Shown: positions 1 through 7,766 of the stretch, piece after piece
How the letters are laid out: every line of letters starts with the position of its first letter
Position numbering within the stretch: the first letter of the stretch is position 1
IMG/VR virus record: IMGVR_UViG_2698536571_000006
DNA: 7,766 nt
Source of the DNA: a virus
Taxonomy: Duplodnaviria; Heunggongvirae; Uroviricota; Caudoviricetes
Reading direction: 5' to 3' (one strand)
Made by a program: the position numbers and the translations under genes
Notes under the pieces: model-generated
What the model was told of the DNA's origin: nothing
The model's database searches: none
What the model saw: the letters and a program-made list of their open reading frames with translations, nothing else

Positions 1-61
1 GAACCGTTCTGACAGCTTCGGCTTTGAACTCTTTAGAGTAACGTTGGGTTTTTCTGCTCAT
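1..61 (-). CDS. IS3-family transposase OrfA, N-terminal 20 codons only (partial; runs off the window start)
   Basis: Minus-strand ATG at 61..59 with AAGGAG SD 6 nt upstream; translation MSRKTQRYSKEFKAEAVRTV is open to position 1. The K/R-x-YS-x-EFK-x-EAV pattern is the characteristic N-terminus of IS3-family OrfA. Confidence 0.7.
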   Translation of the reverse strand, partial: MSRKTQRYSKEFKAEAVRTV

Positions 62-125
62 TATTAGCTCCTTCTGATGCCATTCTATTTCAGGAAGGAG
101 TGTCCGTTAAACTCAGGCTACCTCA
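1..125 (-). mobile_element. IS3-family insertion sequence, terminal ~125 bp (left end with inverted-repeat terminus and 5' end of orfA); the element continues beyond the window start
   Basis: Read on the minus strand, the segment begins TGAGGTAGCCTGAG... (IS3-family ends typically start 5'-TG), followed by an AAGGAG Shine-Dalgarno (+ strand 68-73) and an ATG (+ strand 59-61) opening an ORF whose first 20 residues, MSRKTQRYSKEFKAEAVRTV, match the conserved N-terminus of IS3-family OrfA proteins. From memory it resembles IS600. The boundary at ~125 is approximate. Confidence 0.65.
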
Positions 126-465
126 GTCTGCTGATTTGAGTCGCTACAGTGGCACGGTGGTTAACCGTCCGACGTTTTTTGCTTTTGCAAAAGGCGCGGG
201 TGTGATGGGGGAAGCGGGACCTGAAGCCATTCTGCCACTGCGTCGCGGTGCTGATGGTAAGCTGGGGGGTGTGGCGGATACTGGTGGTTCAGGCATGGTG
301 ATGTTTGCCCCGCAGTACAACATTGAGATCAATAACGATGGCACGAACGGGCAGATAGGTCCGGCTGCCCTGAAGGTGGTTTATGACCTCGGGAAAAAAG
401 CGGCCGCGGACTTTATGCAACAGCAGGCCCGTGATGGTGGCCGGTTAAGTGGAGCATACCGGTAA
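126..465 (+). pseudogene. H: Tail tape measure protein (lambda H-like), 3' fragment of ~113 codons, 5'-truncated at the IS junction
   Basis: Open frame ending TAA 463-465 whose stop overlaps the ATG of M (TAATG), the arrangement expected for the H-M junction. Product SADLSRYSGTVVNRP...GGSGMVMFAPQYNIEINNDG...GAYR. Upstream, all three + frames contain stops within 1..99, so no full-length H can be present. The 100..465 track ORF starts at a GTG lying inside the IS terminus and is a chimera. Confidence 0.55.
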
Positions 466-794
466 TGGAGACGTTTCACTGGAAAGTGCGCCCGGATATG
501 AATGTGGTATCAGAGCCGAAAGTGGTGACAGTGAAGCTGGGCGATGGTTATGAACAGCGTCGTGCGGCGGGACTGAATAACCAGTTGTCGACTTACAGCG
601 TGAAGATACGTGTTCGTAAAGGTGAACACCCATTTTTAAAAGCCTTTCTGGAACGGCACGGTGGCGTCCGCGCATTTCAGTGGACGCCACCTTATGACTG
701 GAAGCCGATCAGGGTGGTTTGTCGTAAATGGTCGGCAAGCGTGGGGGCGTTGTGGGTAACCATAACGGCAGATTTTGAACAGGTCGTGGCATAG
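465..794 (+). CDS. M: Tail tip assembly protein M (lambda gpM-like), 109 aa
   Basis: Complete ATG-to-TAG ORF of 109 aa (METFHWKVRPDMNVV...), the same length as lambda gpM and strongly reminiscent of it from memory; position between the H remnant and L. Confidence 0.9.
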   Translation: METFHWKVRPDMNVVSEPKVVTVKLGDGYEQRRAAGLNNQLSTYSVKIRVRKGEHPFLKAFLERHGGVRAFQWTPPYDWKPIRVVCRKWSASVGALWVTITADFEQVVA

Positions 795-803
795 GAGGCT
801 CTG

Positions 804-1502
804 ATGCAGGATATTCCACAGGAAACACATCATGAGACGACACGCCTCACTCAGTCAGCCCAGGTGGTGCTCTGGGAAATCGATCTGACAGAGGTCGGTG
901 GTGAACGTTATTTTTTCTGTAATGAGCAGAACGAAAAAGGTGAGCCGGTTACCTGGCAGGGGCGGCAGTATCAGGCATACCCCATTCAGGGGACGGGATT
1001 TGAACTGAACGGCAAGGGCAGTGCTGCCCGTCCGACACTGACGGTTTCTAACCTGCACGGAATGGTCACCGGGATGGCGGAAGACCTGCAGAGTCTGGTC
1101 GGCGGAACGGTGGTCAGGCGTAAGGTTTACGCCCGTTTTCTGGATGCGGTGAACTTCGTCAACGGAAACAGCGACGCCGATCCGGAACAGGAGGTGATCA
1201 GCCGCTGGCGCATCGAGCAGTGCAGCGAACTGAGCGCGGTCAGTGCCTCTTTTGTGCTGGCCACACCAACGGAGACGGATGGCGCGGTTTTCCCGGGGCG
1301 TATCATGCTGGCGAATACCTGTATGTGGACTTACCGTTCTGATGAGTGTGGTTACACGGGCAGGGCAGTGGCTGACGAGTTCGACAAACCAACGACGGAT
1401 ATCCGGAAGGACAAATGCAGCAAGTGTATGCGCGGGTGTGAGTTGCGCAACAATACCGGTAATTTCGGCGGTTTCCTTTCCATCAATAAACTTTCTCAGT
1501 AA
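804..1502 (+). CDS. L: Minor tail protein L (lambda gpL-like), 232 aa, with a C-terminal cysteine cluster
   Basis: ATG at 804 preceded by AGGAGG SD (794-799); 232-aa ORF, the length of lambda gpL; C-terminal cysteines (CMWTYRSDECGYTG ... KCSKCMRGC) consistent with the metal-binding cluster described for gpL; synteny M-L-K. Confidence 0.9.
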   Translation: MQDIPQETHHETTRLTQSAQVVLWEIDLTEVGGERYFFCNEQNEKGEPVTWQGRQYQAYPIQGTGFELNGKGSAARPTLTVSNLHGMVTGMAEDLQSLVGGTVVRRKVYARFLDAVNFVNGNSDADPEQEVISRWRIEQCSELSAVSASFVLATPTETDGAVFPGRIMLANTCMWTYRSDECGYTGRAVADEFDKPTTDIRKDKCSKCMRGCELRNNTGNFGGFLSINKLSQ

Positions 1503-1506
1503 ATCC

Positions 1507-2250
1507 ATGACACAGACAGAATCAGCGATTCTGGCGCACGCCCGGCGATGTGCGCCAGCGGAGTCGTGTGGCTTCGTGGTAAGAACGCCGGAGGGAGACA
1601 GGTATCTTCCCAGCGAGAATATCTCCGGTGAGCCGGAGGAACGGTTCCGGATGGCTCCGGAGGACTGGCTGCGGGCACAAATGCAGGGTGAGATTGTGGC
1701 GCTGGTCCACAGTCATCCCGGTGGTCTGCCCTGGCTGAGTGAGGCTGACCGGCGGCTGCAGGTGCAGAGTGATTTGCCGTGGTGGCTGGTCTGCCGGGGG
1801 GCGATTCACAAGTTCCGCTGTGTGCCGCATCTCACCGGGCGGCGCTTTGAGCACGGGGTGACGGACTGTTACACGCTGTTCCGGGATGCTTATCATCTGG
1901 CAGGGATTGAGATGCCGGATTTTCATCGCGGGGATGACTGGTGGCGTAACGGTCAGAATCTCTATCTTGACAATATGGAGGTGACGGGTTTTTACCGTGT
2001 CGCACTGACAGAGGCACAGCCGGGCGATGTGCTGCTGTGCTGTTTTGGTTCATCGGTGCCGAATCATGCCGCCATTTACTGCGGTGACGGCGGGCTGCTG
2101 CACCATATTCCTGAACAACTGAGCAAACGAGAGAGGTACACCGACAAATGGCAGCGACGCACACACTCCCTCTGGCGTCACCGGGCATGGCGCGCATCTG
2201 CCTTTACGGGGATTTACAACGATTTGGTCGCCGCATCGACCTTCGTGTGA
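1507..2250 (+). CDS. K: Tail tip assembly protein K (lambda gpK-like) with MPN/JAMM and NlpC/P60 domains; start codon uncertain (ATG 1507, or internal ATG 1651 equivalent to the classical lambda annotation)
   Basis: ORF open from just after the L stop; ATG at 1507 gives 247 aa. Contains an exact JAMM motif HSHPGGLPWLSEAD (HxHx7Sx2D) and, further downstream, the Cys (TDCYT) and His (PNHAAIY) of an NlpC/P60-like domain. The internal ATG at 1651 has a GGAGGA SD. The 3' end overlaps I by 103 nt out of frame, as in lambda. Confidence 0.85.
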   Translation: MTQTESAILAHARRCAPAESCGFVVRTPEGDRYLPSENISGEPEERFRMAPEDWLRAQMQGEIVALVHSHPGGLPWLSEADRRLQVQSDLPWWLVCRGAIHKFRCVPHLTGRRFEHGVTDCYTLFRDAYHLAGIEMPDFHRGDDWWRNGQNLYLDNMEVTGFYRVALTEAQPGDVLLCCFGSSVPNHAAIYCGDGGLLHHIPEQLSKRERYTDKWQRRTHSLWRHRAWRASAFTGIYNDLVAASTFV

Positions 2251-2789
2251 AAACGGGGGCTGAAGCCATCCGGGCACTGGCCACACAGCTCCCGGCGTTT
2301 CGTCAGAAACTGAGTGACGGCTGGTATCAGGTGCGCATTGCCGGGCGTGATGCAGGTGAAACCGAATTGTCTGCCCGTCTTAATGAGCCGCTGGCAAATG
2401 GTGCAGTGATCCACATAGTACCGCGTCTGGTGGGAGCTAAAAGTGGCGGTGTGTTTCAGGCGGTGCTGGGGGCGGCTGTTATGGCGGTTGCTATATGGAT
2501 GCCGGGGGTAGGAATTATGGCGAGTAATCTGCTGTTTTCTCTCGGTGCCAGTATGACGCTTGGCGGTGTTGCACAGATGCTGGCACCGAAAGCCAGAACT
2601 CCCCGTACACAGACAACGGATAACGGTAAGCAGAACACGTATTTCTCGTCACTGGATAACATGGTTGCCCAGGGCAATGTTCTGCCCGTTCTGTACGGTG
2701 AAATGCGCGTGGGGTCACGTGTGGTTTCTCAGGAGATCAGCACGGCAGACGAAGGGGATGGTGGTCAGGTTGTGGTGATTGGTCGCTGA
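2148..2789 (+). CDS. I: Tail tip assembly protein I (lambda gpI-like), 213 aa
   Basis: ATG at 2148 with GAGAGG SD upstream; overlaps the K 3' end in a different frame; a hydrophobic Gly/Ala-rich segment mid-protein; position immediately upstream of J. Confidence 0.85.
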   Translation: MAATHTLPLASPGMARICLYGDLQRFGRRIDLRVKTGAEAIRALATQLPAFRQKLSDGWYQVRIAGRDAGETELSARLNEPLANGAVIHIVPRLVGAKSGGVFQAVLGAAVMAVAIWMPGVGIMASNLLFSLGASMTLGGVAQMLAPKARTPRTQTTDNGKQNTYFSSLDNMVAQGNVLPVLYGEMRVGSRVVSQEISTADEGDGGQVVVIGR

Positions 2790-2807
2790 TGCAAAATGTT
2801 TTATGTG

Positions 2808-2830
2808 AAACCGCCTGCGGGCGGTTTTGT
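2808..2830 (+). terminator. GC-rich stem-loop in the I-J intergenic spacer (possible attenuator or RNA structure)
   Basis: AAACCGCC (2808-2815), loop TGCG, GGCGGTTT (2820-2827): an 8-bp perfect stem followed by a T-rich tract (TTTTGTCGTTT). J follows at 2850, so any termination must be partial. Confidence 0.3.
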
Positions 2831-2849
2831 CGTTTATGGAGCGTGAGGA

Positions 2850-5800
2850 ATGGGTAAAGGCAGCAGTAAGGGGCATACCCCGCGCGAAGCGAAGGACAAC
2901 CTGAAATCCACGCAGTTGCTGAGTGTGATTGATGCCATCAGCGAAGGGCCGGTTGACGGTCCGGTGGATGGATTAAAAAGCGTGCTGCTGAACGGTACGC
3001 CGGTCCTGGACAGCGAGGGGAAGACAAACTTTTCCGGTGTTACGGTGGTGTTCCGTGCAGGTGAGCAGGAGCAGACACCGCCGGAGGGTTTTGAATCCTC
3101 CGGCTCCGAGACGGTGCTGGGTACGGAAGTGAAATATGACACGCCGATCACCCGGACCATCACGTCGGCAAACATCGACCGTCTGCGCCTGACCTTCGGT
3201 GTGCAGGCACTGGTGGAAACCACCTCAAAGGGTGACCGGAATCCGTCGGAAGTCCGCCTGCTGGTTCAGATACAGCGTAACGGTGGCTGGGTGACGGAAA
3301 AAGACATCACCATTAAGGGCAAAACCACTTCGCAGTATCTGGCCTCGGTGGTGGTGGGTAACCTGCCGCCGCGCCCGTTTAATATCCGGATGCGCAGGAT
3401 GACACCGGACAGCACCACAGACCAGCTGCAGAACAAAACGCTCTGGTCGTCGTACACCGAAATCATCGATGTGAAACAGTGCTACCCGAACACGGCGCTG
3501 GTCGGCGTGCAGGTGGATTCAGAGCAGTTCGGTAACCAGCAGGTGAGTCGCAATTATCATCTTCGCGGGCGCATTCTGCAGGTGCCGTCGAACTATAACC
3601 CGCAGACGCGGCAATACAGCGGTATCTGGGACGGAACGCTTAAGCCAGCATACAGCAACAACATGGCCTGGTGTCTGTGGGACATGCTCACTCATCCGCG
3701 CTACGGCATGGGGAAACGTCTTGGTGCGGCAGATGTGGACAAATGGGCGCTGTATGTCATCGGCCAGTACTGCGACCAGTCAGTGACGGACGGATTTGGC
3801 GGCACGGAGCCGCGCATCACCTGTAACTCTTACCTGACCACACAGCGTAAGGCGTGGGATGTTCTCAGTGATTTCTGCTCGGCGATGCGCTGTATGCCGG
3901 TATGGAACGGACAGATGCTGACGTTCGTGCAGGACCGACCGTCGGATAAGGTGTGNNNNNNNNNNNNNNNNNNNNNNNNNNNNNNNNNNNNNNNNNNNNN
4001 NNNNNNNNNNNNNNNNNNNNNNNNNNNNNNNNNNNNNNNNNNNNNNNNNNNNNNNNNNNNNNNNNNNNNNNNNNNNNNNNNNNNNNNNNNNNNNNNNNNN
4101 NNNNNNNNNNNNNNNNNNNNNNNNNNNNNNNNNNNNNNNNNNNNNNNNNNNNNNNNNNNNNNNNNNNNNNNNNNNNNNNNNNNNNNNNNNNNNNNNNNNN
4201 NNNNNNNNNNNNNNNNNNNNNNNNNNNNCTGCTGGAAACGCAGACCGTGGACTTCAGCGTGGGCGCAGAAGGGCTTCGCCATGTACCGGGTGATGTCATT
4301 GAAATCTGCGATGATGATTATGCCGGTATCANNNNNNNNNNNNNNNNNNNNNNNNNNNNNNNNNNNNNNNNNNNNNNNNNNNNNNNNNNNNNNNNNNNNN
4401 NNNNNNNNNNNNNNNNNNNNNNNNNNNNNNNNNNNNNNNNNNNNNNNNNNNNNNNNNNNNNNNNNNNNNNNNNNNNNNNNNNNNNNNNNNNNNNNNNNNN
4501 NNNNNNNNNNNNNNNNNNNNNNNNNNNNNNNNNNNNNNNNNNNNNNNNNNNNNNNNNNNNNNNNNNNNNNNNNNNNNNNNNNNNNNNNGCTGCGTGAGTA
4601 TCCGTGAGAACGACGACGGCACGTATGCCATCACCGCCGTGCAGCATGTGCCGGAAAAAGAGGCCATCGTGGATAACGGGGCACACTTTGACGGTGACCG
4701 GCGCGGCACGGTGAATGGTGTCACGCCGCCAGCGGTGCAGCATCTGACCGCCGAAGTCACCGCAGACAGCGGGGAATATCAGGTGCTGGCGCGATGGGAC
4801 ACGCCGAAGGTGGTGAAGGGTGTGAGCTTCCTGCTTCGCCTGACCGTGGCAGCGGACGACGGCAGTGAGCGGCTGGTCAGCACAGCCAGGACGACGGAAA
4901 CCACATACCGCTTCAGGCAGCTGGCGCTGGGGAATTACAGTCTGACAGTCCGGGCGGTAAATGCCCGGGGGCAGCAGGGCGATCCGGCGTCGNNNNNNNN
5001 NNNNNNNNNNNNNNNNNNNNNNNNNNNNNNNNNNNNNNNNNNNNNNNNNNNNNNNNNNNNNNNNNNNNNNNNNNNNNNNNNNNNNNNNNNNNNNNNNNNN
5101 NNNNNNNNNNNNNNNNNNNNNNNNNNNNNNNNNNNNNNNNNNNNNNNNNNNNNNNNNNNNNNNNNNNNNNNNNNNNNNNNNNNNNNNNNNNNNNNNNNNN
5201 NNNNNNNNNNNNNNNNNNNNNNNNNNNNNNNNNNNNNNNNNNCGCAGTGTGAACACCGTTGGCAAATCGGCATTTGTGGAGGCCATCGGTCGGGCGAGCG
5301 ATGATGCAGAAGGTTATCTGAATTTTTATAAAGGGTTGATCAATAAAACGCATCTCGGCAAGGAGTTGTGGACGCAGATTGATAACGGTCAGCTTGCGCC
5401 GGACCTGACTGAAATCAGGACGTCCATTACGAATGTCAGCAATGAAATCACGCAAACCGTCAATAAAAAACTGGAAAATCAGAGTGCTGCAATCCAGCAG
5501 ATACAGAAAGTTCAGGTTGATACAAATAATAACCTGAACAGCATGTGGGCTGTGAAGCTGCAACAGATGAAGGACGGACGCCTTTATATTGCGGGTATCG
5601 GTGCCGGTATTGAGAATACGCCAGCAGGAATGCAGAGTCAGGTGCTGCTGGCGGCAGACAGGATTGCGATGATTAATCCTGCGAATGGCANNNNNNNNNN
5701 NNNNNNNNNNNNNNNNNNNNNNNNNNNNNNNNNNNNNNNNNNNNNNNNNNNNNNNNNNNNNNNNNNNNNNNNNNNNNNNNNNNNNNNNNNNNNNNNNNNN

Positions 5801-6361
5801 NNNNNNNNNNNNNNNNNNNNNNNNNNNNNNNNNNNNNNNNNNNNNNNNNNNNNNNNNNNNNNNNNNNNNNNNNNNNNNNNNNNNNNNNNNNNNNNNNNNN
5901 NNNNNNNNNNNNNNNNNNNNNNNNNNNNNNNNNNNNNNNNNNNNNNNNNNNNNNNNNNNNNNNNNNNGGGCAAACCTTTCCCACGGGACTCCCGGGCACC
6001 GGAGAGGTGGCCATCAGGGACCATTACCGTCAGGGTTTATGACGATCAGCCGTTTGATCGGCAAATTGTTATTCCCGCGGTGGCGTTTCGCGGTGCTAAA
6101 CATGAGCGGAAGAATAACAATATTTATTCGTCATGCCGCCTGATAGTGAAGAAAAACGGTGCTGAAATTTATAACCGAACGACCCTGGATAATACGCTGA
6201 TATATACGGGTGTTATTGATATGCCTGCCGGTCACGGTCACATGACGCTGGAGTTTTCTGTATCGGCATGGCTGGTAAATGGCTGGTATCCCACAGCAAG
6301 TATCAGCGATTTGCTGGTTGTGGTGATGAAGAAAGCCACTGCAGGCATCACGATTAGCTGA
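2850..6361 (+). CDS. J: Tail tip / host-specificity protein J (central tail fibre); lambda-like N-terminal and central parts, divergent C-terminal region; interrupted by four masked blocks, so reading-frame continuity is unverified
   Basis: ATG at 2850 (GGAG SD 2838-2841), N-terminus [34 protein letters not shown]... Readable segments continue the same protein in + frames through to TGA at 6359-6361. The frame in window coordinates changes across the first three masked blocks (codon starts mod 3: 0, then 2, then 1, then 2), so the gene is either frameshifted or the masks are not length-preserving. Confidence 0.7.
3956..4228. other. Masked block (273 N) inside J
   Basis: Run of N in the supplied sequence; content unknown. 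Confidence 1.
4332..4588. other. Masked block (257 N) inside J
   Basis: Run of N in the supplied sequence; content unknown. Confidence 1.
4993..5242. other. Masked block (250 N) inside J
   Basis: Run of N in the supplied sequence; content unknown. Confidence 1.
5691..5967. other. Masked block (277 N) inside the J C-terminal region
   Basis: Run of N in the supplied sequence; content unknown. Confidence 1.
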
Positions 6362-6428: not shown

Positions 6429-7028
6429 ATGCGTAAAGTTTGTGCAGCCATTTTGTCCGCAGCCATCTGTCTGGCCGTATCCGGTGCGCCTGCATGGGCG
6501 TCTGAACATCAGTCCACGCTGAGCGCCGGGTATCTTCAGACCCATACTGATATGCCAGGCAGCGATGACCTGAAGGGCATTAACGTGAAATACCGTTATG
6601 AGTTTACGGACACGCTGGGGCTGATTACGTCATTCAGTTATGCCAACGCTGAAGATGAGCAAAAAACGCATTACAGCGATACCCGCTGGCATGAGGATTC
6701 CGTGCGTAACCGCTGGTTCAGCGTGATGGCGGGGCCGTCTGTGCGCGTGAATGAATGGTTCAGCGCGTATGCGATGGCGGGCGTGGCTTACAGCCGTGTG
6801 TCGACCTTCTCCGGGGATTATCTCCGCGTAACTGACAACAAGGGGAAAACGCACGATGTGCTGACCGGAAGTGATGGCGGTCGCCACAGCAACACGTCTC
6901 TGGCGTGGGGGGCTGGCGTGCAGTTTAACCCGACCGAATCCGTGGCCATTGACCTTGCTTATGAAGGTTCCGGCAGTGGTGACTGGCGCACTGACGGTTT
7001 CATCGTGGGTGTCGGTTATAAGTTCTGA
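6429..7028 (+). CDS. lom: Lom-like outer-membrane beta-barrel protein (Ail/Lom/OmpX/PagC family), 199 aa with signal peptide
   Basis: ATG at 6429 with GAGAGG SD (6418-6423). N-terminal signal peptide MRKVCAAILSAAICLAVSGAPAWA with an AWA cleavage motif; C-terminus AYEGSGSGDWRTDGFIVGVGYKF ending in Phe, which from memory matches the lambda Lom C-terminus; located between J and stf as in lambda. Confidence 0.85.
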   Translation: MRKVCAAILSAAICLAVSGAPAWASEHQSTLSAGYLQTHTDMPGSDDLKGINVKYRYEFTDTLGLITSFSYANAEDEQKTHYSDTRWHEDSVRNRWFSVMAGPSVRVNEWFSAYAMAGVAYSRVSTFSGDYLRVTDNKGKTHDVLTGSDGGRHSNTSLAWGAGVQFNPTESVAIDLAYEGSGSGDWRTDGFIVGVGYKF

Positions 7029-7055
7029 TTAGCCAGGTAACACAGTGTTATGACT

Positions 7056-7080
7056 GCCCGCTGGTTCAGGCGGGCTTTTT
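7056..7080 (+). terminator. Putative rho-independent terminator downstream of lom
   Basis: GCCCGC (7056-7061), 8-nt loop, GCGGGC (7070-7075), then TTTTT (7076-7080); begins 28 nt after the lom stop. Confidence 0.5.
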
Positions 7081-7091
7081 GTGGGGTGAAT

Positions 7092-7676
7092 ATGGCAGTA
7101 AAGATTTCAGGTGTACTGAAAGATGGGGCGGGTAAANNNNNNNNNNNNNNNNNNNNNNNNNNNNNNNNNNNNNNNNNNNNNNNNNNNNNNNNNNNNNNNN
7201 NNNNNNNNNNNNNNNNNNNNNNNNNNNNNNNNNNNNNNNNNNNNNNNNNNNNNNNNNNNNNNNNNNNNNNNNNNNNNNNNNNNNNNNNNNNNNNNNNNNN
7301 NNNNNNNNNNNNNNNNNNNNNNNNNNNNNNNNNNNNNNNNNNNNNNNNNNNNNNNNNNNNNNNNNNNNNNNNNNNNNNNNNNNNNNCGGGTAAACCTGTC
7401 GTAAATTGTGCGATTGAACTGCGGGCCAGAAGAACCAGTCCGACCGTTGTGGCACACGTTGTTGCCACTTGCGTGACGGACAATAACGGTGCTTATGTGA
7501 TTGAGGCTGAGCCGGGGTATTACGAGGTTGCGCTTCACTGTAACGGCTGGCAGCCAACCCGTGTCGGGGATATTGATGTGGCACCGACTGATGCACCGGG
7601 GACACTGAACGCGTTTCTGAATGCACCAAAGGATGGTGATTTACGTCCGGAGGTGATGAAGTGTCAGCGCCAGTGA
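7092..7676 (+). CDS. stf: Side tail fibre protein (lambda Stf-like), N-terminal domain only (~195 codons), interrupted by a masked block and ending prematurely relative to full-length Stf; possibly a pseudogene
   Basis: ATG at 7092 (the track ORF start at 7050 lies inside the lom terminator hairpin); N-terminus MAVKISGVLKDGAGK resembles the lambda Stf N-terminus. After the masked block the frame continues GKPVVNCAIELRARRTSPTVV...PGTLNAFLNAPKDGDLRPEV, then stops at TGA 7674-7676. Confidence 0.55.
   Translation: MAVKISGVLKDGAGKXXXXXXXXXXXXXXXXXXXXXXXXXXXXXXXXXXXXXXXXXXXXXXXXXXXXXXXXXXXXXXXXXXXXXXXXXXXXXXXXXXXXGKPVVNCAIELRARRTSPTVVAHVVATCVTDNNGAYVIEAEPGYYEVALHCNGWQPTRVGDIDVAPTDAPGTLNAFLNAPKDGDLRPEVMKCQRQ
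7137..7386. other. Masked block (250 N) inside stf, flanked by the 8-bp direct repeat CGGGTAAA
   Basis: Run of N; CGGGTAAA occurs at 7129-7136 and again at 7387-7394. Confidence 1.
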
Positions 7677-7766
7677 TATAAGACGGTAATTCGCCATTTG
7701 GATTGTCCGCTCCACCCAACATGTTGTTTCCTTAAGGTTCTCACACCAGAAAGGACATCAACATGC

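Follow-up and report, generated by a model that had tools for sequence, protein, structure and literature searches.

IS600 is one of the five insertion sequences that have expanded in all Shigella species, in whose genomes IS-mediated interruption, deletion and rearrangement are a documented mode of decay (PMC7373316). In S. dysenteriae type 1, stx lies within a defective lambdoid prophage that is flanked by IS600 (PMC7819885). Here we analyzed a stretch of viral DNA of 7,766 nucleotides (the window), which opens inside an IS600 copy and passes from it into the 3' end of a tail tape-measure gene. We propose, with a probability of about 0.9, that the IS600 end at 1-125 is one edge of a truncation that IS elements generated in a remnant lambdoid prophage of Shigella sonnei, and that this truncation arose by insertion and IS600 recombination. 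The organism, taken from the names of the matching proteins, is probably S. sonnei.

An earlier reading made from the letters of the window (the sequence-only reading) had interpreted the minus strand of 1..125 as the left end of an IS3-family element similar to IS600, and the TGAGG terminus, the AAGGAG and the ATG that it pointed to are all present, within a 100% match to IS600. A megablast search of complete E. coli genomes with window 1-130 returned matches of 100% identity (E = 7e-61), far above chance level, whose annotation is 'IS3-like element IS600 family transposase'. To judge by this identity the element is IS600 itself, a sharper assignment than an IS600-like member of the IS3 family. 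The same search found the left-end sequence in 3061 of 5426 complete E. coli genomes, so that the earlier remark that IS600-like elements are typical of Shigella and of some E. coli lineages stands for Shigella (the open reading frame across the junction, described below, is SSON_1768), whereas 'some lineages' is too narrow for E. coli. We defined the ends of the element on a full 1264-bp copy at locus L002, where they read TGAGGTAGCC...GGACAC (left) and TGAGGTGTAC...GGACAC (right), imperfect inverted repeats that start with 5'-TG. The left repeat, at window 125-100, is the sole IS600 terminal repeat within the window.

Base 1 of the window corresponds to IS600 position 125, and the orfA frame, whose ATG lies at 61-59 on the minus strand, stays open to base 2 and runs past the window edge. 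Since contigs of other draft S. sonnei scaffolds also start at exactly IS600 position 125, the left edge of the window is an assembly break within the repeat. At the matching place in locus L004, OrfA is complete (100 aa, Pfam HTH_Tnp_1 2.2e-19). In complete genomes, the IS600 copy that touches the tape-measure remnant has the whole of orfA, 20 codons of which are in the window, and neither orfB nor a right end; OrfB of the full IS600 that adjoins this fragment matches rve (8.7e-26). According to RefSeq annotation, IS600 carries a programmed frameshift.

A weak promoter in the left inverted repeat is a known property of IS3-family elements, and the promoter-like site found 5' of orfA has a position that fits it; the single site, compared with 0.8 expected from shuffled sequences, is no evidence by itself. 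Counts in a promoter and terminator scan of window 1-900 were near the shuffle expectation, and an Rfam scan of the whole window gave no match. We also considered whether the GTCTG that lies past the IS terminus could represent a longer IS end or a target preference. This was rejected, as five bases would agree by chance at about 6 of 6124 places and identity to the tape-measure gene starts at 124; the same five bases follow the IS end in 7 E. coli records among those listed.

On the other side of the IS terminus, similarity to intact tape-measure genes of E. coli genomes and phages begins at window 123/124, next to the position of about 126 proposed by the sequence-only reading, and the frame is open to the TAA at 463-465. 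The remnant is 97.6-99.5% identical at the DNA level to E. coli genes and 92-93% identical to those of lambdoid phages, among them mEp460 and phage cdtI. The exact point of the junction is ambiguous within two bases, as the CA at 124-125 belongs both to the IS terminus and, as positions 1 and 2, to codon Q906. The loss of the 5' portion of the gene at an IS boundary, claimed earlier, can be given in codons: those retained are 906/907-1018 of the intact 1018-codon gene of E. coli UTI89 (WP_000372035.1), with an identity of about 95% to the last 112 residues of that protein (106/112, by inspection of the translations), and 905-906 of the 1018 codons (about 89%) are missing. The comparison with lambda H, which had been suggested for 126..465, places the 112 residues translated from 127-462 at residues 782-851 of the 853 of gpH (8iyk_H, from a solved tail-tip structure; E = 2.8e-14). 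Further, remnant residues 1-72 align to positions 259-332 of the 332 of TIGR01541 (tape_meas_lam_C) with E = 1.1e-22; the score, 80.6 bits, falls below the 104.75-bit cut-off because just the end of the domain is present.

Upstream of the remnant, the plus strand has stops in all three frames within 1..99, as had been read: frame 1 is interrupted at 10, 25 and 34 and is open from 37 to the TAA, frame 2 has a stop at 65, and frame 3 has two, at 39 and 75. A full-length tape-measure protein, which has about 850-1020 aa and sets the length of the tail, is not encoded here: 112-113 codons are left and the three frames are closed upstream.

Gene callers nevertheless report an ORF of 121 aa across the junction, with a GTG start within the IS end. 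Its exact entries in the databases are 'tail length tape measure protein [Shigella sonnei]', UniProt Q3Z1A8_SHISS and 'SSON_1768 [Shigella sonnei Ss046]'. In the protein collection it is found on 440 contigs under S. sonnei names (in 432 index blocks), mostly of 5-10 kb, a size to be expected where assemblies are interrupted in the IS copies on either side. On the plus strand, window 92-102 reads AGGAAGGAGTG, a ribosome-binding-like run that is the complement of the IS600 end. This run and the GTG used as the start overlap directly, with no spacer between them, and it probably does not drive translation from that codon. The ORF joins a pseudogene fragment to IS sequence; it is a by-product rather than a functional gene.

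Table 1. Features of the window, with the strand on which each is read and the basis of each assignment.
Feature	Position	Strand	Basis
IS600 left end, element positions 125 to 1	1..125	-	100% identity to annotated IS600 copies over 125-130 bases
IS600 orfA, first 20 codons (MSRKTQRYSKEFKAEAVRTV), open at window edge	2..61	-	Translation
AAGGAG ribosome-binding site, 6 nt 5' of orfA ATG	68..73	-	Direct sequence reading
Promoter-like site (TTAACG, 17-nt spacer, TAGAAT) 5' of orfA	82..110	-	Consensus match only
Left terminal inverted repeat of IS600, TGAGGTAGCCTGAGTTTAACGGACAC	100..125	-	Pairs with right repeat TGAGGTGTACTGGCAATAGCGGACAC of full copy
121-aa junction ORF: GTG start within IS end, 8 IS-derived codons, then tape-measure tail	100..465	+	ORF list; exact database entry
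3' remnant of lambda-like tail tape-measure gene (H), codons Q906-R1018 and stop	124..465	+	DNA identity; UTI89, gpH and TIGR01541 alignments
Minor tail protein M gene	465..794	+	Pfam Phage_min_tail 5.7e-39; ATG overlaps remnant stop (TAATG)
Minor tail protein L gene	804..1502	+	Pfam Phage_tail_L 8.3e-97
Tail tip protein K gene, JAB and NlpC/P60 domains	1507..2250	+	Pfam; 247-aa gene at same place in complete chromosomes
Tail assembly protein I gene	2187..2789	+	Pfam Lambda_tail_I; gene calls
Tip attachment protein J gene, four N runs inside	2850..6361	+	Pfam GpJ domains
lom (Ail/Lom outer-membrane protein) gene	6429..7028	+	Pfam Ail_Lom 4.1e-129
Tail-fibre gene, 5' part	7050..7661	+	About 104 codons match intact 470-aa fibre; contains 250-N gap
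IS21-family element left end (TGTCAGCGCC..., istA ATG at 7763-7765), truncates tail-fibre gene	7662..7766	+	Sequence comparison

Downstream of the junction follows a tail-tip and lom block, which is bounded by IS elements at both ends (Table 1). The boundary between the tail fibre and the IS21-family element is uncertain by about 10 bases (7652-7662), and in complete genomes a further full IS600 (L004 17336-18599), oriented like the copies on the left, interrupts the IS21-family element. The window is interrupted by five N runs, at 3956-4228, 4332-4588, 4993-5242, 5691-5967 and 7137-7386, four of them inside J. We tried the possibility that J is a frameshifted pseudogene, as its split ORFs and partial Pfam matches would suggest, and rejected it, since the blocks that do not match are N runs of wrong length: 273, 257, 250 and 277 bases in the window, and 259, 246, 249 and 271 in the real sequence (differences of 14, 11, 1 and 6 bases). 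These lengths explain why J looks frame-broken in the window; in most complete S. sonnei chromosomes it is an intact ORF of 1159 aa. The fifth run, of 250 N, is spurious: the same 8 bases, CGGGTAAA, stand at 7129-7136 and at 7387-7394, and complete genomes have nothing between them. The 208-aa ORF at 7050-7676 is an artefact of this gap.

To place the left edge in its context, we used ten chromosome-scale NCBI records of 4.6-4.9 Mb, retrieved by exact look-up of the M protein. Window 1-3955 matches them with 99.95-100% identity, and exactly (100%) in 6/10. In most complete chromosomes, the IS600 that adjoins the remnant consists of element positions 1-479 only (up to 482 with microhomology), and directly next to this fragment stands a full IS600 of 1264 bp with the same orientation. 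Past the right inverted repeat of the full copy comes a phage late-regulation module with DUF1367, YbcO, a Q-like antiterminator and four tRNA genes (the Q-tRNA module). In intact relatives this module runs on for about 110 bp into the holin, lysozyme, Rz and terminase genes; here the far end of the full IS600 lies just past the module, where the holin gene is expected, and meets the spacer behind ...GGATAGAGTG, without the CTTTCC that naturally follows there. The outcome that would have spoken against a truncation, an intact in-frame H continuing leftward, was not seen; a full IS600 and then the Q-tRNA module were found instead.

The tRNA cluster, at L006 7426-7736 between the Q-like gene and IS600, was read by ARAGORN as Met(cat), Arg(tct), Thr(tgt) and Gly(tcc); in relatives, the RefSeq annotation of this cluster is Ile, Arg, Thr and then Val or Gly.

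The complete arrangement is, from left to right, Q, tRNAs and spacer; the full IS600; IS600 1-479; 113 tape-measure codons followed by M-L-K-I-J-lom and the truncated fibre; and the IS21-like element. In the complete chromosomes, the Q-tRNA spacer is separated from the tape-measure remnant by IS600 sequence and nothing else. The locus is without lysis, terminase, portal, capsid and tail-tube/tail-shaft genes and without 905 tape-measure codons, genes that intact relatives possess. The sequence-only reading had called the prophage a cryptic remnant, and the matching chromosomes, in which no lysis, terminase, head or tail-shaft genes stand between the Q-tRNA module and the remnant, agree with it. 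Because these genes and the 905 codons are gone, no tail or virion is possible from this locus. The defective state was present in every S. sonnei record examined.

Neither junction was met outside these records: the one between IS600 and the tape-measure remnant occurs in 0 complete E. coli genomes, as does the one between the spacer and IS600, for which the single apparent match proved to be two separate pieces, and a 48-base exact pattern for the junction was absent from the species-representative genomes of GTDB, where S. sonnei is evidently not represented.

The stack of IS600 copies on the left of the window (L006 7919-9661) varies among strains. The commonest form is IS600 1-479 plus a full copy. 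Locus L004 (7329-9661) has an additional tier of element positions 1-593 (1-479, 1-593 and full copy), L016 (1508-3026) has a 1-255 fragment with the full copy in place of 1-479, and L010 (8098-9661) and L018 have an internal deletion of 795-969 in the full copy. Two of the three fragment junctions, at IS600 479 and 593 (the third being at 255), show microhomology to the left inverted repeat, with the bases TGA in common.

These forms suggest a route by which the locus may have been built. IS600 would have inserted at codon 906 of the tape-measure gene, with its transcription directed away from the 3' piece that remains, presumably by simple insertion with its 3-bp duplication. A second IS600 would then have nested in the first, in the same orientation, and homologous recombination between the duplicated 3' parts would have left the 5' fragment followed by a full copy. 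Finally, recombination with an IS600 situated between the phage tRNA cluster and the holin gene would have removed or moved the intervening DNA. The 1-593 tier of L004 and the 1-255 fragment of L016 support the route of nested insertion and recombination; the order and type of the recombination events are our reconstruction, and the missing DNA was probably lost by deletion and did not move elsewhere. The other half of the original insertion, that is, the 5' tape-measure gene next to an IS600 right end, was never seen.

The alternative that retains most weight, although we consider it improbable at about a fifth of the total credence, is a rearrangement between prophages: inversion or translocation through IS600 recombination would have joined the Q-tRNA module of one prophage to the tail-tip module of another, and the 5' tape-measure part and the head genes would survive elsewhere beside another IS600. 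The closest E. coli relatives lend it some support, for they hold the tail and Q-tRNA modules in separate prophages 0.25-0.74 Mb apart (tail versus Q-tRNA module at 2.10 vs 2.35 Mb in RMDEC364, 2.55 vs 2.30 Mb in VL46, 4.15 vs 4.70 Mb in CFSAN029787 and 5.04 vs 4.30 Mb in FDAARGOS_944), and the Q-tRNA prophage of FDAARGOS_943 has a different, non-lambda head module. Rearrangements mediated by IS elements are also known in Shigella genomes (PMC7373316). However, lambdoid phages are mosaic, and the placing of modules in other genomes does not fix their ancestral order in S. sonnei. Moreover, neither the reciprocal junction ...TTTACCAGTC|TGAGGTGTACTGG nor a Shigella-named 5' fragment was found; no Shigella-named protein stands among the best 120 clusters for tape-measure residues 1-906, a weak test because fragments can hide in large clusters of E. 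coli proteins. Deletion and rearrangement alike leave a split gene and a defective locus.

The closest E. coli tail module is that of FDAARGOS_944 (L001 1-18577), with 99.5% identity over window 124-700 and 92.7% over 124-3955. It belongs to a lambda-like prophage that adjoins the sitD iron/manganese transporter gene and in which the portal, capsid, tape-measure and J genes are frameshifted.

Two further readings, to which we jointly assign a very small likelihood, concern the retention of the block and the shape of the IS600 stack. First, the 7.7-kb tail-tip/lom segment, lying between same-orientation IS600 copies and downstream of an intact Q-tRNA module, might have been kept as an expressed and useful piece of DNA, for example by Q-dependent read-through across the antisense IS600 copies that yields Lom or a J-based function. 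Second, the 5' fragments that end at 255, 479 and 593 might reflect a specific activity of IS600, such as self-targeting or aberrant end-joining, and not random nested insertion plus recombination.

Still less credible is a simple IS600 insertion, with the 5' part of the tape-measure gene just past the element and off the window. Elements of the IS3 family such as IS600 normally insert by simple transposition with a 3-bp duplication, and the window taken alone is compatible with such an event, yet in the ten chromosome-scale records what lies beyond the IS600 copies is the Q-tRNA spacer and no tape-measure gene. The outer flanks of the stack, GTG on the left and GTC on the right, also differ; they are not a 3-bp target duplication (the sequence-only reading had proposed to look for one of 3-4 bp), and they fit a rearranged copy and not a fresh insertion. 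That reading had left the choice between insertion and IS-mediated deletion, and on both grounds, the absent 5' part and the unequal flanks, it now leans towards deletion or rearrangement. Least probable of all is a chimeric contig end, an idea that a scaffolded draft with five N runs (one spurious) and a start inside a repeat might invite, as the identical junction is present in gap-free chromosome-scale assemblies and the junction ORF is on 440 contigs.

The locus is thus a routine product of IS600-driven prophage decay in S. sonnei, of a kind already known, and its junction ORF entered the databases with the Ss046 genome; its relevance is mainly one of correct annotation. The 'tape measure protein' of 121 aa is a pseudogene fragment, and the apparent frameshifts of J in the window are artefacts of scaffold gaps and not biology. 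As many S. sonnei assemblies appear to contain the junction, it could be of use as a lineage marker.

Compared with the systems described to date, the element at the left edge has the same TGAGG... repeat, ribosome-binding site and OrfA start as the IS600 of Shigella and E. coli, and is identical to it over 125 bases. It differs from a complete IS600 in that the copy at this locus is a 479-bp 5' fragment stacked on a full copy, and is not autonomous. The phage part follows lambda in its gene order H-M-L-K-I-J-lom, and it is the C-terminal 70 residues of the remnant that align to gpH; the PF09718, PF24622 and PF06791 domains of the intact 1018-aa relatives are absent from it. With the Stx prophage remnant of S. 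dysenteriae type 1 the locus shares the loss of most structural genes and the presence of IS600 at the break points (PMC7819885), but here the prophage and the species are different, the tail-tip/lom and Q-tRNA modules are retained, and there is no toxin operon.
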